54,094 bases of DNA from an uncultured archaeon (lineage in GTDB: Archaea > Iainarchaeota > Iainarchaeia > Iainarchaeales > Iainarchaeaceae), in assembly GCA_902386385.1 (NCBI GenBank), contig CABMIU010000025.1, positions 1 to 54,094 on the forward strand. The letters run 5' to 3'. A program made the translations under genes and the position numbers. Of the stretch, positions 1-53,520 are shown one piece after another. The notes under the pieces were generated by a model that worked only from the letters and a program-made list of their open reading frames with translations, had not been told where the DNA came from and made no database searches. Position 1 is the stretch's first letter. Each line of letters opens with the position of its first letter.

Positions 1-627
1 AATGCCAATGGTGTTTTACTTGTCGCTATTACCTCAAGGGCAGGCGTGCCAAAAATTAAAACTGAAACCGAGGAAACTATGAAAAAGCTCGGAATTGACC
101 CGAAACTTTTCGCAGGCATAAAATACTGGCTATTAAGGCTAAAGCTGGAAATCTACACAGTTCCTGATTCCACAAACCTGATTCGCAGCATGAAAAGGGA
201 TTTCAGAGTTTCTGACGAGGAGCTCACACGGTTTTTCAAGTCACTAAAGGCAGAGCCTGCGGAAATCAGGAGGGAATTATTTCCCGCAGTCGTAAAAGCA
301 TTCCAGATACACGAAGTTATGAAAGCACGCGGAATAACCGCGAAAAATGCGATTATGGTTGGTGACAACCCGCTGATTGACCTAGCTGCAGCGAGGCTGC
401 TCGGAATACAGCACGCATCCGCGAATTTTGACAAGTACAGTTTCCGTCCTTTCGAAAATACAATTGGGGCAAAAAGGCGGATTTCACTGGGTGATGCATC
501 GAAAGCCAGCCGAAAAAGGCAGTTGCAAACAACCGTGGCAAAAAAAACGGGCATTCATAGAAGCCCACAGGACCTCGGAATAAGGTGGCATAGGCAAAAA
601 GCAATAAAGGCTTTTTTAAGGCGGTAA
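1..627 (+). CDS. HAD-superfamily hydrolase, 5'-truncated by the window edge
   Basis: Frame 1 is open from nt 1. It contains GVLLVAITSRAG (HAD motif II-like) and AIMVGDNPLIDLAAARLLG (the GDxxxD motif). The stop is TAA at 625-627. The last ~60 aa are basic and low-complexity, which is atypical for the family. Confidence 0.6.
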   Translation, partial: NANGVLLVAITSRAGVPKIKTETEETMKKLGIDPKLFAGIKYWLLRLKLEIYTVPDSTNLIRSMKRDFRVSDEELTRFFKSLKAEPAEIRRELFPAVVKAFQIHEVMKARGITAKNAIMVGDNPLIDLAAARLLGIQHASANFDKYSFRPFENTIGAKRRISLGDASKASRKRQLQTTVAKKTGIHRSPQDLGIRWHRQKAIKAFLRR

Positions 628-2919: not shown

Positions 2920-3263
2920 AACCAATGTAAAATAAGATTTCAGAAAATATAAATGCAAAGGTTTAGCCTTGAACCGGGACAGGCTCAACACGCACAAAAA
3001 AATCCAGCGATTTGAACAAAGGACTGGCCAGGGTTGCAATGCAATGTCTGAACATTGACATGGAACGCGTGATGCCCCCTCATGCTTTTTATGGCCAATG
3101 TAAGCCAAATCAACCATATTTTGACATGCCCTCGCCAGTTGCCGGCGCGCTGCGGGATAAACACAGGGCAGCAATCTCTTTCAAAATGCCATTTTTTTCA
3201 TTTTGGGGACTTTCCGTAGGATTATATATTTTTCTTCCTCTATTGAAGCAGGAGGGCTGCAAA

Positions 3264-3485
3264 ATGGGTTTAGGTGAAGCGGTACAAATAGGCACTATGC
3301 TGACAGTGACAGCGATTTCTTCGGTATTATTGATTGTTCTTGGCGTAATTTACTTTGCAGTAAGCCTCGTGATAATAAAGGTTTCCGCGGGGCTGGTGGG
3401 ATACTCGGCGGTTTCGGCAGAAACCGCGGTCCTGAGCGCCGCTATATTGAGCGCTGCCTCGCTTGTGGCAAGCAACAGGAAATGA
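3264..3485 (+). CDS. Small (73 aa) two-helix membrane protein, hypothetical
   Basis: The ATG at 3264 is preceded by GGAGGG (3251-3256). The product (MGLGEAVQIGTMLTVTAISSVLLIVLGVIYFAV..) is hydrophobic. Its 3' end overlaps the convergent gpgP-like gene by 44 nt. Confidence 0.35.
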   Translation: MGLGEAVQIGTMLTVTAISSVLLIVLGVIYFAVSLVIIKVSAGLVGYSAVSAETAVLSAAILSAASLVASNRK

Positions 3486-4278
3486 TGGCATCATCCGGGC
3501 CGGCCAGAATGCCTGCAATTATTTCAATCCATCCTTTCTGACCCTTTGCCTTGGCCTTTTTGAATTTTTTCGATGCATACCCCCCGTCCGGTTTCCTCAC
3601 CAAGTAAGCGTCGTCTGCCGCGGCCAGCATTGCAATGTCGTTCTCGCTGTCGCCTATTGCAATTGAGTTGATTTGCCCGAACTCCTTTTTGTAAAGGTAT
3701 GCCAGTTTTTTAACGGCCTTGCCCTTGTCGTGGCCGATGCAAAGGTGGCAAAAACCCCCCCCCATCAAAAAAATAAGCCCTTTTTTCCTGGCAATTTTTG
3801 CAAGTTCTTTTGCACTTCCAGAATGGAGCAGGAAGCATTCGTCAAATTCCCTTTTCTTTGCCTTTGCTGCAAGTGCCCTGCCCATGCCGGTTAGCTCCAT
3901 TGCCCTCTGCAGGCCCATTTCCGAAAGCGATTCAGTTTCAAAGCCTTTTTTTCGCATTTCCGCGAGGAATTTTCTTGGCTTGGAAACCCCCTTTGACAAT
4001 TTTATTTCAAGCAACCTGCCGGCAGAAACAGCCCCGCTGGCCTTGAAGCTGAAATATTTTTTCGGGATGAAAATCGCGGCACCGTTCTCGCTGATGAATG
4101 GGCCATGCAGCCCCAGCTTTCTCTGCCAGTATTCAAGCTCGGCCCTTGTTTTGCTGGAAACCGGGACAACCGGGATTTTTTTATTTCTGAGCATCGCCAG
4201 CGAAGCCTTTGCGCCATCTGAAGGACCCTGGCCATTTTCAAGCAGGGTTCCGTCAAGGTCTGTGAATACCACCTTCAT
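3442..4278 (-). CDS. gpgP: HAD-IIB glucosyl/mannosyl-3-phosphoglycerate phosphatase family protein
   Basis: MKVVFTDLDGTLL.. (DxDGT nucleophile motif), ..VVPVSSKT.. and ..IAIGDSENDIAML... The start overlaps the stop of the upstream GT81 synthase gene (ATGA). Stop is TAG. Confidence 0.75.
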   Translation of the reverse strand: MKVVFTDLDGTLLENGQGPSDGAKASLAMLRNKKIPVVPVSSKTRAELEYWQRKLGLHGPFISENGAAIFIPKKYFSFKASGAVSAGRLLEIKLSKGVSKPRKFLAEMRKKGFETESLSEMGLQRAMELTGMGRALAAKAKKREFDECFLLHSGSAKELAKIARKKGLIFLMGGGFCHLCIGHDKGKAVKKLAYLYKKEFGQINSIAIGDSENDIAMLAAADDAYLVRKPDGGYASKKFKKAKAKGQKGWIEIIAGILAGPDDAIISCCLPQARQRSI

Positions 4279-5273
4279 TTTGACGCCTCTTGCCAGCCCA
4301 TGAATTTTTCGCGGTACTCTTTTATTGTAACCATCGGCGGCCTGTGCTTGATCAGGAATAGCTTCTTTGCCAATGCGTATTCTATTTTCTCACCGCTCAA
4401 TTTTGGCTCGATGAGGGTGTACATCTGGTTGATTTTATCGAGATTCACGAAAACGCCGAGGGAATTGGATTTTTCGGAAAAAGCCTGGAGGATTTCAAAC
4501 GACATTTTGCTCAGGTCATTCAATGGCCTGTTCCTGTGTTCCCTTGTCTCAAGGTCGACCTGTGCCATGGAGTCCAGGCCAAAACTCCTTTCAAGGTCAA
4601 TAAGCAGCCCCATTTCAACGCCATAGCCAGTGAAGAAAGGGACTTTTTCAAGGACTTCGCGGGTGCCGGCATATTCCCCGCTCAGAGGCTGTATGAATCC
4701 CGCGAGCTGCGGGAAATAGGCGTTGTAAAGCGGCCTCATAAGAAGTTCTGTGACCCTGCCGCCTTCGAGGTTTTTCAGGCCACCCCCCACATCAAGCGGC
4801 CGCTGGTAAAAAGCCTTTGAAAAATTAATGTTTCTGTACTTTAGAATCGGGCCTACAAGGCCATAAACGAATTTCGGGTTTATGTTCTTTATGTCTGCAT
4901 CAACCCAGCAGATTATGTCCCCTGCCGAGACAAAAAGGCTTTTCCAGAGGTTCTCCCCCTTCCCTTTCGCATATCCTTCGCCCGGCAATATATCCTTGGC
5001 GTAATAAAAAAGCGCACCGGCTTCCTCCGCAACCTTTTTCGTGTTGTCTCTTGACCCGGAATCTATTACAATTATCTCGTCAATCAGCCTTGTTTTTTTC
5101 ATTAGCGTATCCCTGAGCTCACGGATGACATTGCCAACAGTGACCTCTTCATTAAGCGTCGGGATTACGCACGAGATTCTCTTTTTTTGCTTTTTCTTTA
5201 TGTCCACGAGCTCATCCAGCGAAAAATCCGTTGCAATGAACCGGTTCTTTTCAAACCACTTTTCAACATCCAT
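4275..5273 (-). CDS. gpgS: Glucosyl-3-phosphoglycerate synthase (GT81 glycosyltransferase)
   Basis: 332 aa with ..ISCVIPTLNEE.., ..IIVIDSGSRDNT.., ..GKGENLWKSL.. and ..ICWVDADI... This resembles the GpgS/MpgS family, and the gene is coupled to a HAD-IIB phosphatase gene. Confidence 0.8.
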   Translation of the reverse strand: MDVEKWFEKNRFIATDFSLDELVDIKKKQKKRISCVIPTLNEEVTVGNVIRELRDTLMKKTRLIDEIIVIDSGSRDNTKKVAEEAGALFYYAKDILPGEGYAKGKGENLWKSLFVSAGDIICWVDADIKNINPKFVYGLVGPILKYRNINFSKAFYQRPLDVGGGLKNLEGGRVTELLMRPLYNAYFPQLAGFIQPLSGEYAGTREVLEKVPFFTGYGVEMGLLIDLERSFGLDSMAQVDLETREHRNRPLNDLSKMSFEILQAFSEKSNSLGVFVNLDKINQMYTLIEPKLSGEKIEYALAKKLFLIKHRPPMVTIKEYREKFMGWQEASK

Positions 5274-6315: not shown

Positions 6316-6834
6316 TTGAAACGGGGACTTTTTGTAGGGCGATTCCAGCCGTACCACAGCGGCCACCACAACGCGCTGAAGAACGCGCTGAAAGAAGTAG
6401 ATGAAATGGTTATCGTCGTCGGCTCGGCGAAGGAAAGCTTCCAGCTCGAAAACCCATTCACTTCAGGGGAGCGCATTGAAATGACAGGCCTCGCGCTGAA
6501 GGAGGACAAAATATTCGACAAATGCTATATTGTAGCGGTTGATGATATTTCAGAATTCGCCCTGTGGACGCAGCGCATAAGAGCCTATTGCCCTAAGTTC
6601 GACGTTGTTTACACTAACAACCCCCTTGTGAAGGAACTCTTCGAGGCAGACCATTGCCCTGTGAAAAAACTCGTGAGCAACAGCAGCGAAATCGATTCCA
6701 CAAGGATAAGGGAAAACATCGCAATCGGGGAAAGCATCTCAGGGATGGTGCCGAAAGCCGTTGAGAAGTTCCTCGAAAAGATAGACGCGCGGAAAAGGAT
6801 ACTTTCTATAACGCAGGACGAAGTCAAGCAGTAA
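6316..6834 (+). CDS. nadM: Nicotinamide-nucleotide adenylyltransferase, archaeal type
   Basis: 172 aa beginning MKRGLFVGRFQPYHSGHHNAL.. (the (H/T)xGH nucleotidyltransferase motif). TTG start. Confidence 0.85.
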   Translation: MKRGLFVGRFQPYHSGHHNALKNALKEVDEMVIVVGSAKESFQLENPFTSGERIEMTGLALKEDKIFDKCYIVAVDDISEFALWTQRIRAYCPKFDVVYTNNPLVKELFEADHCPVKKLVSNSSEIDSTRIRENIAIGESISGMVPKAVEKFLEKIDARKRILSITQDEVKQ

Positions 6835-6837
6835 AAC

Positions 6838-6941
6838 AACCTTTTCCTTTCTATTTAGAAGAGAAAGTAAAAGGTCCTTGTCCCTTTAGGGACGAGGTCT
6901 CATGCTCTTTAGGGCACAAGATAATCAAAAGGAAAGAGAAC
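6838..6941 (+). repeat. Structured intergenic element, copy A (pyrimidine tract, purine tract, two hairpins, second purine tract)
   Basis: CCTTTTCCTTTCT (6840-6852) pairs with GAAAGTAAAAGG (to 6874). A hairpin CCTTGTCCC-TTTA-GGGACGAGG spans 6876-6897, and a weaker hairpin with a TTTA loop spans 6898-6921. The element ends in AAAAGGAAAGAGAAC. It is related to 31247-31348. Confidence 0.6.
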
Positions 6942-6953
6942 AGCTTCGTAAAA

Positions 6954-8414
6954 ATGAAGATTATGCCAGAAAAATTTGATTTGATTGTAGTTGGCTCCGG
7001 GATTGCAGGCCTCAGCGCCGCCTTGGAGGCTGCAAAATCAAAGGGAAAATCCATCTGCCTCATTGACCGGTTCGATGAATCGCACTCTAACAGCTTCTGT
7101 GCACAGGGCGGAATTGCGTGCGCATTCGCTAAAAATGATTCATGGCAGAAGCATGCACAGGATACATTGGCGGCCGGAGCGGGCTTGTGCAACAATGAAA
7201 TAGTGAATCTTGTCACAAAAAAAGGGCCTGAGGCGATAAAAGAACTCATGGATTCGGGGCTTGAATTTGACGGCGGGAACGCGAAGCCCGAATTCGGGCT
7301 GGAAGGCGGTCACTCGGAGAAAAGGGTGCTGCACATCAAAGGCGACCAGACAGGGAAAGAGGTTACAAAATTCATGGCAAGGCTCGCAAAAGAACAAGGA
7401 AATATCCAAATCATCGGCAAGGCATTCATGGCAGGCATAGCGGCAGGCAACAATGGGTTTATTGGAATTGAGGCAATAGGCAAAGCCGATGCCATTTCAG
7501 GGAACGCTCTCGTAATTGCCACAGGCGGCTACGCAGCGTGCTTTGAAAAATCAACCAACCCTGAAACAACACTCGGAAGCGGGATTGCTGTTGCAGAGCA
7601 GGCCGGGTGCATCCTCGGGGGAATGGAATTCGTGCAGTTCCACCCCACAACCCTGCAATCAGCAATAGGCTCAAACTTTCTGGTGAGCGAGGCAGTGCGC
7701 GGCGAAGGCGGGAAAATAGTGGACGGAAACAACAGGGCGATAGTGAACCCACTGTGGACAAGGGACAAGGTAAGCATCGCCATTTATGAAGAGCTTGCGG
7801 CTGGAGGAAAAGTTTTTTTGGACGCCCGTGAGGTCAGGGCAGATTTTGCTGAACGGTTCCCTTCAATTTACGCAGAGCTGCTGAGGCACAAAATCAACCC
7901 TGAAACCGACCTGATACCCATTGAAGCCGCGGCACATTACACGATAGGAGGCATAAAAACCAATGAAAGGGCAATGGCAAGCATAAAGGGAATTTATGCC
8001 GCGGGAGAATGCTCCTGCTCCGGGCTGCACGGCGCGAACAGGCTTGCATCCAATTCGCTGCTAGAAGGCCTCGTGATGGGGAAGATTGCAGGGGCGAATG
8101 CCATTAGTGAAAAATCCGGCAAGCAAAGCCCCACAAAGCCAAATCTAAAAATTTCGCCTGAGAAGGGCGGCTTGTCCCAGGCAATTGCCCTGAAGCAGAT
8201 GAGGCAAGCAATGTGGGCAAATTGCGGAATCGTGCGCGAAACCGCAAAAATGGAAAGCGGACTCGCGAAAATAAAAATGCTTGAAAAAGAAATCGAAGTT
8301 TCTGAAACAATTGAAAATGCCGTTGCGCGGAACGCCTTGCTGGTTTCGCGAAGGACTTTTGAGGCGGCACTTGCAAGAAAAGGGAGCGTGGGATGCCATT
8401 GCAGGATAAACTAA
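6954..8414 (+). CDS. nadB: L-aspartate oxidase
   Basis: 486 aa with DLIVVGSGIAGLSAAL (FAD dinucleotide fold), ..HSNSFCAQGGIA.. and ..GLHGANRLASNSLLEG... Confidence 0.9.
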   Translation: MKIMPEKFDLIVVGSGIAGLSAALEAAKSKGKSICLIDRFDESHSNSFCAQGGIACAFAKNDSWQKHAQDTLAAGAGLCNNEIVNLVTKKGPEAIKELMDSGLEFDGGNAKPEFGLEGGHSEKRVLHIKGDQTGKEVTKFMARLAKEQGNIQIIGKAFMAGIAAGNNGFIGIEAIGKADAISGNALVIATGGYAACFEKSTNPETTLGSGIAVAEQAGCILGGMEFVQFHPTTLQSAIGSNFLVSEAVRGEGGKIVDGNNRAIVNPLWTRDKVSIAIYEELAAGGKVFLDAREVRADFAERFPSIYAELLRHKINPETDLIPIEAAAHYTIGGIKTNERAMASIKGIYAAGECSCSGLHGANRLASNSLLEGLVMGKIAGANAISEKSGKQSPTKPNLKISPEKGGLSQAIALKQMRQAMWANCGIVRETAKMESGLAKIKMLEKEIEVSETIENAVARNALLVSRRTFEAALARKGSVGCHCRIN

Positions 8415-8430
8415 AGTGAATTGGGATAAT

Positions 8431-9303
8431 TCACTTCCCTATTTCTATCATCCTGTCCAATGCCTTTTTCGCCTTTTCGCGGACATTCTCAGGCACCTTG
8501 ACCTCAAACATTTCCTTCTCAAGCGCCTCGAGCACATTCTCGAGCGTTATTTTCTTCATGTAGGGGCAGATGCTGCACGGCGTTATGAATTCCTTGTCAG
8601 GGAACCTCTCGCGCAGCAGGTCGGACATCCCGCATTCGGTCGCGATGAGGAAGCGCTTTTCCTTGCTCGCCGCGATGTAATTAATCATGTCAGTTGTTCC
8701 GCCCGCCATGTCCGCAAGCGAAACAACCTCGGGAAGGCACTCCGTATGAGCAAGCACTTTCAAGCCGGGATATGAGTGCCTATATTCCAATACCTGTTCC
8801 GCGGAGAATGAGTCGTGCACAATGCATTTCCCGCTCCAAGCGATTATTTTCTTTTTTGCCCTGGCCTGAAGGTTGGCAGCCATGAATTTGTCAGGCACGA
8901 AAATAACCTCGTTGCCGGGCATTGCCTCAATCACTTTGAGGGCATTCGCGCTTGTGCAGCAGACATCACATTCAGCCTTCACTTCCGCACTCGTGTTCAC
9001 ATAGCACACGGCAGGCACGCCAGGATGCTCTGACTTCAGTTGGCGGACATCCTTGGCAGTAATGCTTTCCGCGAGAGAGCAACCGGCCTCAAGGCTGGGA
9101 ATCAAGACTTTTTTCTGCGGATTCAGGATTTTGGCGGTTTCAGCCATGAAATGGACGCCGCAGAACGCGATGACATCGGCATCGGTTTTCCTGGCCTCGA
9201 CGCTGAGGCCGTAGCTGTCCCCCGCAAAGTCAGCTATGCCGAGCAGAATCTCCGGGCGTTGGTAATTGTGGCAGAGAATCACCGCGTTCTTCTGCTTCTT
9301 CAA
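8431..9303 (-). CDS. nadA: Quinolinate synthase
   Basis: 290 aa with ..AVILCHNYQ.., ..FCGVHFMAETAKIL.. and ..CSICPYMK... It is convergent with nadB. Confidence 0.9.
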   Translation of the reverse strand: MKKQKNAVILCHNYQRPEILLGIADFAGDSYGLSVEARKTDADVIAFCGVHFMAETAKILNPQKKVLIPSLEAGCSLAESITAKDVRQLKSEHPGVPAVCYVNTSAEVKAECDVCCTSANALKVIEAMPGNEVIFVPDKFMAANLQARAKKKIIAWSGKCIVHDSFSAEQVLEYRHSYPGLKVLAHTECLPEVVSLADMAGGTTDMINYIAASKEKRFLIATECGMSDLLRERFPDKEFITPCSICPYMKKITLENVLEALEKEMFEVKVPENVREKAKKALDRMIEIGK

Positions 9304-15240: not shown

Positions 15241-15293
15241 CACTTTTCTTTTTGGTAAAGCTTTTTCTTTTCGTGTCAACGAAAAGAAAAAGG
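15241..15293 (-). repeat. 53-nt repeat, copy 1 (3' trailer of tRNA-Pro); contains the hairpin CTTTTTCTTTTCG-tgtcaa-CGAAAAGAAAAAG
   Basis: 47 of 53 positions are identical to 15412-15464, and only the central 6-nt linker differs. The oligo-T runs directly after the tRNA 3' end could also act as the terminator. Confidence 0.8.
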
Positions 15294-15330
15294 TTTGGGG
15301 TCGGGAGGATTTGAACCCCCGCCGCAGCGT

Positions 15331-15468
15331 CATTCGCAGCCTTTTTCTTTTTCTTGATAAGAAAAAGAAAAACGCTGGCGAAAAAGAAAAAGAACAGCCC
15401 ATAGGGCATTACACTTTTCTTTTTCCCCAGGCTTTTTCTTTTCGTGTCAACGAAAAGAAAAAGGCTGA
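15331..15468 (-). other. tRNA-Pro intron (BHB type, 138 nt)
   Basis: The BHB reads CAGCG/CGCTG, then a 4-bp TTCG/CGAA helix flanked by the 3-nt bulges GGT and TGA, then CAGCC/GGCTG. Confidence 0.8.
15412..15464 (-). repeat. 53-nt repeat, copy 2 (5' part of the tRNA-Pro intron)
   Basis: See copy 1 at 15241-15293. Confidence 0.8.
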
Positions 15469-15660
15469 CCCGAACGCTGAATCCTACCAGGCTAGACTAC
15501 GACCCCGAACAACAATATTCAAAATATTTGACTTCTATGCCCGTCATTTTAGGCAGAAACTTTTGCGGTGGGCATGACAAGGAAAATTTTGCATGAAAGG
15601 CTTAAATACCCGAAGGGGCTAATGTTTTAATTTGATTTCAGGGGAGTGGGGGAATAATTT

Positions 15661-17370
15661 TTGGACGAGAAGTTCCTTGCGAGCATAAGCGACAAGTCCA
15701 GCGGCGAGCATTTTTCGGCTTTTCCTGAAGGGTATGAGAAGGGCAGGACAAAATTCGTTATAATCACCGGTTCCGTGATGAGCGGCATAGGGAAAGGCAT
15801 TTTTTCCTCCGCATTGGGTAAGACCCTGCAGGACAGGAACCTGAAGGTCGCGCCGATAAAGGTCGAGGCTTACCTCAACATCGATTCAGGCACCCTGAGT
15901 CCTTACAGGCATGGCGAAGTATTCGTGCTCGACGATGGCACTGAAACCGATATGGACCTCGGCAGCTACGAGAGGTTCCTTGACATGGAGCTTTCAAGGG
16001 ACAATTTCACCACTCACGGCCAGATTTACAAGAGGATTATTGAAAAGGAGAGGGCGGGCTTTTACCAGGGAAGGGATGTGCAGTACATTCCGCATGTCAC
16101 TGGCGAGACGAAGATGGTGCTCAGGAACCTCGCGATGAAGTCGAAGGCGGATATTGTGCTCATTGAAATCGGGGGCACTGTGGGCGACTACGAGAATCTG
16201 TTTGCGATGGAGAGCGTGAGGGAGCTAATTTATGAGGAAGGAGCACAGAATTGCTGCTTTGTCAACCTCACATACATCCTTGAGCCGCACCACCTCGGCG
16301 AGTTCAAGAGCAAGGCAGCGCAGATAGGCCTGAGGCAGCTCATGGGCCTGGGGCTCCAGCCAGACCTGATTGTGTGCAGGAGCGAGCACCCCATAACGAG
16401 GACAGTGAAGGAAAAAATTTCAATGAATGCGAATGTTCCTATCGAGAGGGTTTTCAACACTTATGATGTCGGCAACATTTACGAACTCCCTCTGTTCTAC
16501 AGGGAACAGGGCGTTGACGAGGCAATACTGCAGGTGCTCGGCATGGAGAAGAAGTTCAAGGTGAACGGCAGCAGGAGCCTGAGGGATTGGACGGAGAAGA
16601 ACATCCTGAAACCTGAAAAGGAAGTGACTATCGGGGTTGCCGGAAAATATACTGGAACAAGCGACACTTATATCAGCATTGTAAAGGCATTGGAGCACTG
16701 CTCGGCAGTGCTGAACGCAAAGGTTAACGTGAAGTGGATTGAAGCCACTGATGTCGAGAACGGCAAGAGCAGGATTGAGGAGGAAATGCAGGGCGTGGAC
16801 GGGGTAATCGTGCCTGGCGGATTCGGAACGCGCGGGGTAGAAGGAAAAATTGCGTGCGTCAAATACCTGCGTGAGAACAAGGTGCCTTTCCTCGGGATTT
16901 GCTACGGGTTCCAGATGGCGGTTATCGAATTCTGCCGCAGCATCTGCGGGGTAAAGAATGCCAACACAGAGGAAGTGAAGAAGGATTCCGAGAATAATGT
17001 AATATGCATACTGCCGGAGCAGGAAGAGGTAGAAGGCCTCGGGGGAACGCTCCGCCTCGGCGGGTTTGACATAAAGGTGAAGAAAGGGACCCTGGCATAC
17101 GAGCTTTACGGTAAAAAGGACAAGGTGCGCGAGAGGTTCAGGCACAGGTTCAATGTGAACACAAAGTTCATTGACCTGATTGAAAAGAACGGCATGGTAT
17201 TTTCAGGGATGGCTCCGCAGAAGAGGATAATGCAAATCCTTGAATTGCCGGGGCATCCTTTCTTTGTCGGGACGCAGTATCACGCGGAATTCACCTCAAG
17301 GCCCCTGAAGCCGAACCCTGTGTACCTAGGGTTCGTGAAAGCTGCGCTGAAGAAGAAGTACGGGAAATGA
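15661..17370 (+). CDS. pyrG: CTP synthase
   Basis: 569 aa with ..FVIITGSVMSGIGKG.. and ..PFLGICYGFQMAV.. (GATase Cys). TTG start. The N-terminus is about 28 aa longer than in typical PyrG proteins. Confidence 0.95.
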   Translation: MDEKFLASISDKSSGEHFSAFPEGYEKGRTKFVIITGSVMSGIGKGIFSSALGKTLQDRNLKVAPIKVEAYLNIDSGTLSPYRHGEVFVLDDGTETDMDLGSYERFLDMELSRDNFTTHGQIYKRIIEKERAGFYQGRDVQYIPHVTGETKMVLRNLAMKSKADIVLIEIGGTVGDYENLFAMESVRELIYEEGAQNCCFVNLTYILEPHHLGEFKSKAAQIGLRQLMGLGLQPDLIVCRSEHPITRTVKEKISMNANVPIERVFNTYDVGNIYELPLFYREQGVDEAILQVLGMEKKFKVNGSRSLRDWTEKNILKPEKEVTIGVAGKYTGTSDTYISIVKALEHCSAVLNAKVNVKWIEATDVENGKSRIEEEMQGVDGVIVPGGFGTRGVEGKIACVKYLRENKVPFLGICYGFQMAVIEFCRSICGVKNANTEEVKKDSENNVICILPEQEEVEGLGGTLRLGGFDIKVKKGTLAYELYGKKDKVRERFRHRFNVNTKFIDLIEKNGMVFSGMAPQKRIMQILELPGHPFFVGTQYHAEFTSRPLKPNPVYLGFVKAALKKKYGK

Positions 17371-17403
17371 GTATACTGCAGATAATCCGGCGAAGCGCAG
17401 AAT

Positions 17404-17985
17404 TCAGCTTTTTCCGAGAGCCTCATTGAACAGGCCGGAAGTTTCCTTGTTTTTGAAATTCATGCTGCTTACAATTACTTTCCCTTTTTCCGAAAGGCGG
17501 CGGTACATGAATCTTATCTTGTGCAGGGCTTTTTCCCTGCCGTTCCGTTCAAGGTAGAAAGGGATATTGTATTCCATGAAAGCAAGGCTGTCGGCTTCCA
17601 TGAGCAGGTTGGAGTCATCATTCCCGCCGGATTCATGCCGTTCAACTGCGTTGGCCATCCGGCTTATTTCTTCGTGGCTGAAGCCGTGCTTTTCCATCAT
17701 TTGGCTGAGGATGCCAGCCGACCTTTTCGCGTGCTCTCTTTTGAACTCTTCGTACCCCGAAAATCCATCGAGGCCTTTTTCGGTTATTCCGGTTACTGCT
17801 CTTTCGATGTCATGGCCAAAGGCGGCGATTTTCATTGCGTCCCCGCAGCCAGGGCTGAGTTTTATGAGCCATTTAAGCACGAGTTTTGCGTGGCAAAGCT
17901 CGTTCTTCAGCGGGGAACGCGGAAGAGTGCCCTCGATTTCCTTCTTTATCGCATTAAAGCCAGCCATAAGCAAAAAGCCATGCAA
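17404..17985 (-). CDS. HD-domain-like protein of unknown function
   Basis: 193 aa with ..IAAFGHDIERAV.. (HD dyad) and ..ERHESGG... Confidence 0.55.
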   Translation of the reverse strand: MHGFLLMAGFNAIKKEIEGTLPRSPLKNELCHAKLVLKWLIKLSPGCGDAMKIAAFGHDIERAVTGITEKGLDGFSGYEEFKREHAKRSAGILSQMMEKHGFSHEEISRMANAVERHESGGNDDSNLLMEADSLAFMEYNIPFYLERNGREKALHKIRFMYRRLSEKGKVIVSSMNFKNKETSGLFNEALGKS

Positions 17986-53131: not shown

Positions 53132-53245
53132 TTAATCCCGCCCCGGACAGCCCCTTTTCGAGGTTCCGACAAGCCTTTTTAACCTTAACACGGGGATTTT
53201 CTATCGGAAAGGAAAAGGCAGCCGGCTATTTTCGCCGAAGGCAGG

Positions 53246-53299
53246 CTCTTTTTCTTTTTGGTTCAGCTTTTTCTTTTTCTCTCCGAGAAAAAGAAAAAG
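53246..53299 (+). repeat. Mirror-repeat pyrimidine tract plus a perfect 15-bp polypyrimidine/polypurine hairpin in the tRNA-Ser 5' leader
   Basis: The sequence reads CTCTTTTTCTTTTT (53246-53259), ggttcag, CTTTTTCTTTTTCTC (53267-53281), tcc, GAGAAAAAGAAAAAG (53285-53299). The element ends 4 nt before tRNA position 1. Confidence 0.85.
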
Positions 53300-53303
53300 G
53301 TGA

Positions 53304-53520
53304 GCGGGGATGGCAGAGCGGTCTAATGCGCACGCCTGGAATAACCCTTTTCTTTCTCTTGCGAGAGAAAGAAAAGCGTTAGCGGAAAAGAAAGAGAAGC
53401 TGGCAAGGCTTTCTTTTCTTTTTTCGCCAACGTTTTTTCTTTTCTTCGCGAAGAAAAGAAAAAAGGTTGCGGCCAGCGTGTTCCTTCACAGGAGCATGGG
53501 TTCGAATCCCATTCCCCGCG
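53304..53520 (+). tRNA. tRNA-Ser (anticodon GGA, class II) with a 133-nt intron at 37/38
   Basis: The 5' exon (53304-53341) is GCGGGGATGGCAGAGCGGTCTAATGCGCACGCCTGGAA. The 3' exon (53475-53520) is AGCGTGTTCCTTCACAGGAGCATGGGTTCGAATCCCATTCCCCGCG. The acceptor stem is GCGGGGA/TCCCCGC, a long variable arm is present, the T-arm is ATGGG-TTCGAAT-CCCAT, and the discriminator is G. Confidence 0.85.
53342..53474 (+). other. tRNA-Ser intron (BHB type, 133 nt)
   Basis: The BHB reads CACGC/GCGTG, then a central CTGG/GCGG helix (3 of 4 positions pair) flanked by the 3-nt bulges AAT and CCA, then AACC/GGTT. Confidence 0.75.

Follow-up and report, generated by a model that had tools for sequence, protein, structure and literature searches.

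Two inverted copies of a mirror-symmetrical repeat make up the predicted intron of an archaeal tRNA-Ser(GGA) gene

Introduction

What is the 133-nt insert that interrupts the anticodon loop of a tRNA-Ser(GGA) gene in contig CABMIU010000025.1 (assembly GCA_902386385.1, an uncultured archaeon), and why does it resemble the intron of an unrelated tRNA-Pro gene on the opposite strand? The whole stretch analysed, 54,094 nt in length, is called the window below. A first-pass annotation of the letters had described the insert as an intron with a bulge-helix-bulge (BHB) splice motif, folded into three hairpins in an order common to both genes. We find that the intron consists of two inverted copies of a repeat unit of ~58 nt, that such units also stand outside introns, at the ends of tRNA genes, and that the outer strand of the unit is a mirror repeat of its hairpin; all of this goes beyond that annotation. 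The reading that we lean to, with modest confidence, is that of a genuine BHB intron made from two inverted units that bracket the exons and fold autonomously within the pre-tRNA.

The interrupted tRNA-Ser(GGA) gene

Run without its intron option, ARAGORN calls zero tRNAs in the window, and Rfam reports zero RNA genes there at gathering score; since both tRNA genes of the window are missed in this way, a standard annotation would report none here. Once introns are allowed, ARAGORN calls a tRNA-Ser(GGA) at 53304..53520, whose parts are the following, all on the + strand.

53304..53341, +: 5' exon of tRNA-Ser(GGA), positions 1-37 (ARAGORN with introns; the spliced product is a cloverleaf)
53342..53474, +: BHB intron of 133 nt at 37/38 (ARAGORN, in-silico splicing, folding, orthologue in locus L135)
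53475..53520, +: 3' exon (ARAGORN with introns, in-silico splicing)
53331..53346, +: 5' side of the BHB, with CACGC, CTGG, AAT (predicted cut after 53341) and AACC, read from the sequence
53465..53480, +: 3' side of the BHB, with GGTT, GCGG, CCA (predicted cut after 53474) and GCGTG, read from the sequence
53331-35 and 53476-80, +: anticodon stem, CACGC/GCGTG
53336-39 and 53469-72, +: central helix, CTGG/GCGG (C-G, U.G, G-C and one G.G mismatch)
53340-42 and 53473-75, +: bulges of 3 nt each, AAT and CCA
53343-46 and 53465-68, +: outer helix h', AACC/GGTT, i.e., (U)AACC/GGUU(G)
53347-59, +: pyrimidine strand Y1, CTTTTCTTTCTCT, followed by the loop tgcg
53364-76, +: purine strand R1, AGAGAAAGAAAAG, pairing with Y1
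53377-84, +: linker CGTTAGCG, the junction between R1 and R2
53385-53400, +: purine strand R2 of the middle arm
53409-25, +: pyrimidine strand Y2 of the middle arm, candidate Hoogsteen strand
53425-32, +: linker CGCCAACG, between Y2 and Y3
53433-46, +: pyrimidine strand Y3, TTTTTTCTTTTCTT, followed by the loop cgcg
53451-64, +: purine strand R3, AAGAAAAGAAAAAA, pairing with Y3

Removal of 53342-53474 in silico leaves an 84-nt class-II tRNA-Ser with a long variable arm and the loop CTGGAAA, which ARAGORN recognises as tRNA-Ser(gga) without the intron option. The gene, the length and position of its intron and the spliced loop that had been proposed are thus confirmed, and every string of the proposed BHB motif, G-G mismatch included, is where it was said to be: the bulges AAT and CCA stand in the correct register around a central helix of four positions, one of them a G.G mismatch. 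As far as position and motif can tell, and with this one mismatch, the insert is a genuine archaeal BHB intron. The minimum free energy (MFE) fold of the Ser pre-tRNA agrees with the order anticipated earlier (Y-R, R-Y and Y-R hairpins on a four-way junction), and its -97.5 kcal/mol (z = -6.6) was equalled by none of 200 shuffled sequences.

A repeat unit of about 58 nt

The second tRNA gene of the window has an intron of the same layout and, like tRNA-Ser(GGA), a repeat unit in its flank.

15296..15506, -: tRNA-Pro(CGG) with a 138-nt intron at 15331-15468 (ARAGORN with introns; two-unit build; perfect hBHBh' motif)
15241..15298, +: 3' trailer repeat unit of tRNA-Pro, antisense to the tRNA, with its hairpin end 3 nt past the tRNA
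53246..53305, +: 5' leader unit of tRNA-Ser, sense (66.8 bits with covariance model R1; hairpin end 4 nt short of nucleotide 1)
53340..53399, -: antisense unit, 5' half of the Ser intron (R1, 73.8 bits, E = 5e-12)
53409..53471, +: sense unit, 3' half of the Ser intron (R1, 74.2 bits), with Y2, CGCCAACG, the hairpin Y3/R3 and GGTTG

Without the 138 nt at 15331-15468, the Pro tRNA is likewise callable by ARAGORN with no intron option, and its motif, CAGCG-TTCG-GGT-CAGCC...GGCTG-CGAA-TGA-CGCTG, has a central helix of 4 perfect bp. Its pre-tRNA is also more stable than shuffled sequence (z = -7.7), with an MFE fold that is an alternative rod, unlike the four-way junction of the Ser pre-tRNA; such a rod is possible because all the arms resemble one another. 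A further call, a tRNA-Pro(tgg) at 3031-3635 (-) with a 509-nt intron, is a probable false positive that appears only at a lowered ARAGORN threshold, and no paired repeat-type Y/R arms are listed there in the arm scan of the window.

The three hairpins are not the basic unit of these introns. What is repeated, in inverted orientation, is a unit of ~58 nt that consists, in order, of a pyrimidine strand (Y_H), a linker of 7-8 nt, a second pyrimidine strand (Y_W), a loop, a purine strand (R) and the pentamer GGYTG. Y_W and R form a near-perfect A/U-rich hairpin of 12-14 bp, whose stem continues where CARC of the linker pairs with GYTG, and Y_H is a mirror repeat of Y_W, hence parallel-compatible with R. 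In the transcript, the antisense unit at 53340..53399 appears as the hairpin Y1/R1 followed by CGTTAGCG and then by R2, a mirror of R1 over 13 nt, and in the sense unit Y2 is parallel-compatible with R3 at 14 consecutive positions. The middle arm is therefore two Y_H-type strands that face each other and pair imperfectly: there is one mirror mismatch in each Ser unit (over 14 and 15 nt) against 3 mismatches in 13 under strict Watson-Crick pairing, and a mirror-repeat outer strand explains why the middle hairpin is imperfect.

Model R1 has exactly six full-length matches in the window (61-82 bits), all at the two tRNA loci, namely the Ser leader (+), the two halves of the Ser intron (-, +), both halves of the Pro intron and the Pro trailer, the last being almost a copy of the first hairpin and following purine tract of the Pro intron, which make up its 5' unit. 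The layout that the two introns had been said to have in common is borne out by these matches, and the covariance-model search that had been proposed does find further members, with 117 matches in 0.5 Mb of related DPANN contigs besides the six in the window. Low-complexity composition had been named as what might explain the likeness of the Ser and Pro introns away and, the arms being all T/C or A/G runs, some similarity does come for free. However, the hairpin pattern TTTTCTTTY..RAAAGAAAA occurs six times in the window, always at the two tRNA loci (6/6), against 0.00 expected from shuffles, the non-repetitive junctions CGYTRGCG/CGYCARCG and CARCC/GGYTG are conserved, the run-length patterns covary across three strands and members are found in dozens of independent assemblies. 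Composition alone does not account for this, and the chance of a merely coincidental similarity is negligible.

One Y-R hairpin of the window, CCTTTTCCTTTCT..AGAAGAGAAAG at 6839-6875, has no third strand; R1 matches no more than its hairpin, with 27 bits on either strand. Situated between two convergent open reading frames (ORFs), 6316..6834(+) and 6851..7249(-), it may simply serve as a terminator in both directions.

Three strands that change together

Is the third strand of the unit an ornament of its composition, or does it follow the hairpin? A metagenome scan with the junction TTTTTCGYCARCGTTTTT(N)CTTTT gave 59 loci, and 131 non-redundant units were parsed from all the fetched DNA into Y_H, linker, Y_W, loop, R and post-sequence. 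The strand statistics were taken from an alignment of 47 DPANN units. The stem formed by Y_W and R together with CARC/GYTG is paired in 95.8% of the alignment cells and has changes on both sides at 11 of its 15 pairs, which no shuffle of 500 matched. In the parallel register of Y_H and R, 96.6% of the cells are T:A or C:G over 12 positions, where slid registers reach at most 64%, antiparallel ones at most 78% and row-shuffled ones a mean of 80%; the covariation is 0.337, against at most 0.046 when slid and a mean of 0.07 when rows are shuffled. At the four most variable parallel positions, 98.3% of the cells are compatible, 39 cells have changed on both sides and the covariation score is 0.608 against 0.319 shuffled. 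The units being related by descent, these shuffle statistics overstate their independence; still, the covariation in the parallel register is as strong as that of the Watson-Crick stem.

The mirror relation itself is perfect in 36 of 59 units and has at most one mismatch in 52 of them (z = 10.7 against shuffled partners), and a direct-repeat alignment of Y_H and Y_W is clearly poorer. Run-length patterns differ among units (5,4; 6,4,2; 4,3,1,1; 3,3,1,2; 4,2,5; 5,0,4) and are always mirrored. In locus L195, the two units of an intron have different patterns and each third strand tracks its own hairpin. Duplication or inversion cannot produce mirror repeats, which suggests selection for a structure with a parallel third strand, and the Y_H·R-Y_W symmetry points to the signature of a pyrimidine-motif intrastrand triple helix.

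The hairpin loop of the unit varies from 0 to 8 nt. Linker and post-sequence covary in the window and the DPANN alignment (CAGC with GCTG in 10/10, CAAC with GTTG in 17/22), a pairing of CARC and GYTG that adds 4 bp beyond a conserved G.G mismatch; such a two-state covariation could also reflect two subfamilies.

Units at the ends of tRNA exons

Where do these units stand? At DPANN-type loci, 13 leader units are in sense orientation, nearly all of them 1-6 nt before tRNA nucleotide 1, and 11 trailer units are antisense, nearly all 2-8 nt past the tRNA 3' end. The order within introns is an antisense unit followed by a sense unit. In nearly every case it is the hairpin end with the pentamer (GGYTG in sense, CARCC in antisense units) that points to the exon, and in introns these terminal pentamers pair as the outer BHB helix h'. 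The motif of a tRNA-Arg, CGAGC-TTCC-GGC-CAGCC...GGTTG-GGAA-TGA-GCTTG, has a perfect 4-bp central helix as well. The DPANN loci have 39 distinct tRNAs, 16 of which carry introns of at least 40 nt, and 12 of these 16 introns contain Y/R tracts; tract-bearing introns occur in at least eight tRNA species (Ser GGA, Ser UGA, Gln, Arg CCG, Gly GCC, Gly CCC, Pro CGG and Thr GGU). Contigs with units are of the Diapherotrites type and of Micrarchaeia and Nanoarchaeia.

Intron units are also found in the T-loop (Gly-UCC in L177, L195, and His in L016) and, in L016, at a D-loop position. Neither ARAGORN with introns nor Rfam detects these interrupted genes, which lie at 150-510 (-) in L177, 2150-2560 (-) in L195, and 4880-5180 (-) and 7940-8000 (+) in L016. 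A probable tRNA-Ala(UGC) at ~1700-1800 of L154, about 550 nt downstream of a 16S rRNA gene, is likewise missed by both programs.

In L151, a sense unit at 2119-2175 ends 8 nt before the ATG of an ORF for a small L40e-like ribosomal protein (MARFKEAEIRIF...), so the unit is not exclusive to tRNA genes. Rfam, at gathering score, has no match over any unit, whether in the window or among 38 related loci, and full-text searches yielded no publication that links such repeats to archaeal tRNA introns, leaders or trailers.

This placement could be taken as transcription punctuation, in which the T-tracts act as archaeal oligo-T terminators or insulators against read-through on both sides of tRNA genes or, in a variant, the A/T-rich arms serve as promoter elements of a TATA-like kind, ~22-36 nt ahead of the point where the RNA begins. 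Indeed, trailer units put a T5-T6 tract 2-8 nt past the tRNA 3' end, a polymerase that enters from either side would meet two T-tracts, and Y_W occupies roughly -22 to -36 relative to tRNA nucleotide 1 or, in L151, relative to the ATG of the L40e-like ORF. On the Ser side of the window, however, there is a promoter-like sequence upstream of the leader unit.

53170..53184, +: promoter-like caagcCTTTTTAAcc (inferred), upstream of the Ser leader unit

Counterparts of caagcCTTTTTAAcc occur at the orthologous place in L135 (caagcTTTTATAAcc) and in L138 (caacgTTTATAAcc). With such boxes (TFB recognition element (BRE)/TATA-like, e.g., caagcTTTTATAAcc) ahead of the leader units at all three loci (window, L135, L138), the leader unit would probably belong to the primary transcript, and being transcribed through argues against units as strong terminators or as the promoter of the tRNA. 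Moreover, units are also present within introns, where termination would be harmful, and neither role calls for mirror or inverted symmetry, and the loops vary from 0 to 8 nt. Punctuation therefore seems improbable to us.

The same placement has a second possible meaning, since the unit adjoins every type of tRNA processing site: RNase P, RNase Z and the splicing endonuclease could release the unit, or the pair of units, as a functional small RNA. The product would be the excised, probably circular, intron, comparable to box C/D RNAs in tRNA-Trp introns and to other tRNA-linked small RNAs. Very stable folds (the z of -6.6 and -7.7 given above) and sequence kept across the Diapherotrites-type, Micrarchaeia and Nanoarchaeia contigs would fit a functional RNA, whereas the lack of a conserved single-stranded guide-like segment, the occurrence of both orientations (two different RNAs would be released), the missing Rfam family and the units ahead of protein-coding genes do not, and we give this explanation little credit.

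The three-block build has a wider distribution than tRNA genes. Bacterial units of the three-block mirror build reach z = 7.2 in the mirror test, and none of 92 is near a tRNA. These bacterial loci (L001-L120; e.g., L001 6716-6751, L014 2746-2800, L062 2702-2760) carry a mirror-plus-inverted three-block motif in metagenome-assembled genomes (MAGs) that include Eubacteriales/Clostridia, Bacteroidota, Melainabacteria and Selenomonadaceae, with no Rfam match, and many Eubacteriales copies have a common 14-nt loop, GCGCCTnnTnGnnC, and the linker GCYAAG; the motif may represent a separate conserved element that has yet to be described. Among the matches listed in a scan of GTDB genomes with CTTTTTCTTTT..AAAAGAAAAAG, most were bacterial and off tRNAs, and five were useful DPANN loci. 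A viral scan with the junction pattern AAAAGCGTT..CGGAAAA gave 14 matches, all of them chance occurrences inside coding sequence.

Close relatives and the spread of the intron

Among the proteins encoded in the window are an A-type ATPase, enolase and CTP synthase. Proteins of 'Candidatus Diapherotrites' MAGs (76-81% identity) are the best-matching named homologues of an adjacent aminotransferase, and by the names of these homologues only we take the host to be a DPANN archaeon. How old is the Ser intron in this group? Locus L135 (GCA_016202305.1) has an orthologous tRNA-Ser(GGA) with an equivalent leader unit and an intron five substitutions apart, in which the central-helix strand reads GCAG, so that the U.G pair has become U-A and the G.G mismatch is kept. 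The syntenic loci L138-L140 have a tRNA-Ser(GGA) with no intron, and so does L170, with a leader unit as in L138-L140. In L138-L140, a sequence of ~60 nt, CTTTTCTTTTTTCGCCAACGTTTTTTCTTTTCTggAAGAAAAGAAAAAAGGTTG, that is ~95% identical to the 3' part of the Ser intron of the window stands directly upstream of tRNA-Ser(GGA) and also of tRNA-Ser(UGA). The intron is thus polymorphic among close relatives, and its 3' half is a leader element elsewhere. That leader (in L138) and intron are homologous from end to end was considered and rejected, as only the 3' ~60 nt are clearly homologous and the similarity upstream is too weak.

Similar introns are also found across tRNA identities. The Pro(CGG) intron and an Arg(CCG) intron in L152 have 5' units that are almost the same, down to the loop gttgacac, and Ser(GGA) and Ser(UGA) make a second such pair. 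As to the enzyme, the related contig L137 encodes a 169-aa tRNA_int_endo protein, a splicing endonuclease; no gene for this enzyme is in the 54-kb window.

Some of the loci also contain duplicated gene starts, in which the first 16-27 nt of a gene are copied upstream and followed by an antisense unit, a spacer of 17-45 nt and then the complete gene (L180 1200-1480; L148 215-470; L144 1380-1700 (-); L175 2060-2400 (-); L143 ~8700-9000 (-)). The genes concerned are tRNA-Thr, tRNA-Leu, an ahcY-like ORF (in two genomes) and a short, tandemly repeated ORF in L143, and the duplicates begin exactly at tRNA nucleotide 1 or at the ATG. Such 5' fragments may have arisen on the way to intron gain, or from instability that the repeat induces.

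In L138, a gene for an IS200/IS605-type Y1 transposase (17022-17498, -) lies 69 nt downstream of tRNA-Ser(UGA). Searched with tblastn, this Y1_Tnp has matches only in L138 and L139, unflanked by units, and none in the window or in other fetched loci.

RNA cassette or DNA repeat

How could two such units make an intron? If the reading that we lean to is correct, each unit would fold on its own within the pre-tRNA, so that the intron would be a rigid, self-contained cassette with no mispairing to the GC-rich tRNA body. In the 3' unit, the U-rich Y_H strand (Y2) could occupy the major groove of its own hairpin, making a triple helix of U·A-U and C+·G-C. The cassette would present its two 3-nt bulges to the splicing endonuclease, and the exons, freed by cuts after 53341 and 53474, would be joined by RtcB-type ligation into the loop CUGGAAA. 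The spread of the cassette among tRNA genes may have come about as units of the leader and trailer types were duplicated or recombined. We hold the triple-helix part of this proposal more tentatively than the cassette itself, as something that the strand symmetry makes possible and falls short of making probable. To our knowledge, 12-14 consecutive triples would be more than in any natural RNA triple helix characterised so far.

A bolder form of the proposal would have DPANN tRNA exon ends capped by an RNA module with an intramolecular U·A-U / C+·G-C helix of 12-14 triples. Modules at 5' ends, at 3' ends and on either side of introns of every kind would then mark or protect processing sites, the pentamers would build the BHB and the intron would be a trailer-type module fused to a leader-type module. 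As a whole, this extension is doubtful.

Several observations weigh against an RNA cassette. The Ser central helix has its G.G mismatch, the statistics come from units of common descent, as said above, and the three-block motif has no inherent tie to splicing, since bacteria carry it at a distance from tRNA genes. Some archaeal transcription termination within the intron is to be expected at its U-rich T5-T6 tracts. Almost perfectly paired (0 mismatches in the 221 pairs of sense units) and not enriched in G.U, the hairpins look more like young DNA palindromes than like an RNA structure of long standing. Finally, the mirror rule is equally valid for antisense units, in whose transcript the third strand is made of purines, and RNA forms triplexes of the purine motif poorly; together, these two points speak for a constraint at the DNA level, or one independent of the strand. 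Mismatches sorted by orientation into G.U and A.C are just 5 among 456 pairs, too few to separate selection on RNA from selection on DNA, and in DNA an H-DNA motif (Y_H/Y_W) overlapping a cruciform motif (Y_W/R) would have the identical symmetry.

Several of these points are what a selfish or unstable DNA repeat would lead one to expect, be it of the potential intrastrand triplex (PIT)/BoxC type, a doublet of the REPIN type (paired repetitive extragenic palindromes, REP) or H-DNA, that renders no service to the tRNA. The symmetry would serve propagation, or arise from structure in single-stranded or supercoiled DNA, and an inverted doublet that landed in the anticodon loop would survive since its ends happen to complete a BHB. 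The patchiness of the intron among close relatives, the near-identical copies in different tRNA genes and flanks, the almost perfect palindromes with no G.U pairs, the mirror rule irrespective of orientation and the dispersal of the three-block motif in bacterial genomes would all follow, and the duplicated 5' gene fragments beside units (L148, L180, L144, L175 and L143) fit the genomic instability reported for bacterial intrastrand-triplex repeats (PMC4666352). A DNA repeat does not, however, explain why units stand 1-8 nt from mature tRNA ends in strict orientation, with 6/6 window units at tRNA loci, since random insertion followed by selection does not account for this unless there is a targeting mechanism, and no transposase is associated with them (Y1 only in L138/L139, unflanked by units; none in the window). 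Nor does it explain why the unit termini are exactly the outer helix of the BHB. We regard it as unlikely, although as the most serious of the competing explanations.

Increased disruption of tRNA genes and unpredicted tRNAs were reported in DPANN by Kaneta et al. 2018 (PMC5829648), and the tRNAs that default ARAGORN and Rfam miss, both of those in the window and several more in related contigs, help explain incomplete DPANN tRNA sets (PMC5829648); model R1 and the orientation rule offer a way to locate the hidden exons. The Ser intron is recent, being patchy among near relatives, and built from the leader/trailer unit, so that comparison among related genomes can put the origin of archaeal tRNA introns and split genes to a direct test. 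A triplex, should it form, would mean that a tRNA precursor, or the DNA of the gene, holds a long natural triple helix of the pyrimidine motif, and would give a function to prokaryotic intrastrand-triplex repeats that so far have none. The exon-cap extension, if true, would be categorically new, a living example of the gain and interconversion of BHB introns and split tRNA genes.

Comparison with known systems

The repeat-built intron belongs neither to the REP/RAYT systems nor to the ENEs, and no Rfam family includes it. REP/REPIN doublets do resemble it in having hairpin units, single or as inverted foldback pairs, that are dispersed and intergenic. Here, however, there is no associated RAYT/Y1 transposase, and the unit differs further by its third mirror strand and by its placement at or in tRNA genes. 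ENE-type U·A-U RNA triple helices (PMC13541005) are alike in that U·A-U predominates, beside a few C+·G-C, among the major-groove triples proposed here. In an ENE, a U-rich internal loop clamps an A-rich tail (PMC13541005), whereas our unit has no internal loop and carries the third strand 5' of the hairpin, followed by the pyrimidine and then the purine strand.

The closest likeness in build is to PIT motifs (Hoyne/Maher 2000; PMC4666352), in which three homopurine/homopyrimidine blocks on one strand make a Watson-Crick pair and a third block in Hoogsteen register. The sense unit fits class IV of Holder et al. 2015, and its complement class II (PMC4666352). PIT motifs, including the BoxC/TMECO repeats, are, like our units, dispersed and linked to local rearrangement; the bacterial elements have had no function found for them (Holder et al. 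2015, PMC4666352). Our unit is A/T-rich and not G/C-rich, archaeal, and located at tRNA exon boundaries and within the pre-tRNA, and its linker of 7-8 nt is outside the ITxF limit (1-6) and inside that of Hoyne (0-10).

Typical archaeal tRNA introns are a few tens of nt long. With canonical hBHBh' introns, ours have in common the position 37/38, the two 3-nt bulges in register around a spacer of four positions, the two flanking helices and the restoration of a normal tRNA upon removal; they differ by their 133-138 nt, by their two inverted repeat units, by an outer helix that comes from the repeat terminus and, in the Ser copy, by the one G.G mismatch of the central helix. As in the split tRNA genes of Nanoarchaeum equitans (PMC4033280), complementary exon flanks pair to build the BHB, and our intron can be read as a trailer-type unit joined to one of the leader type. 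Here, though, the halves are contiguous and presumably co-transcribed, and the flanks are a common repeat rather than gene-specific GC-rich complements.

Finally, the transposed intron families of the Thermoproteales are described, in what we draw on from Fujishima et al. 2010 (PMC4033280), as similar introns in different tRNA species, gained by spread, and the closely similar intron sequences in different tRNAs (Pro/Arg, Ser(GGA)/Ser(UGA)) are a likeness to them. In the DPANN contigs, by contrast, what recurs is a defined homopyrimidine/homopurine unit with mirror and inverted symmetry that, in fixed orientation, is also present in leaders, in trailers and before protein-coding genes.

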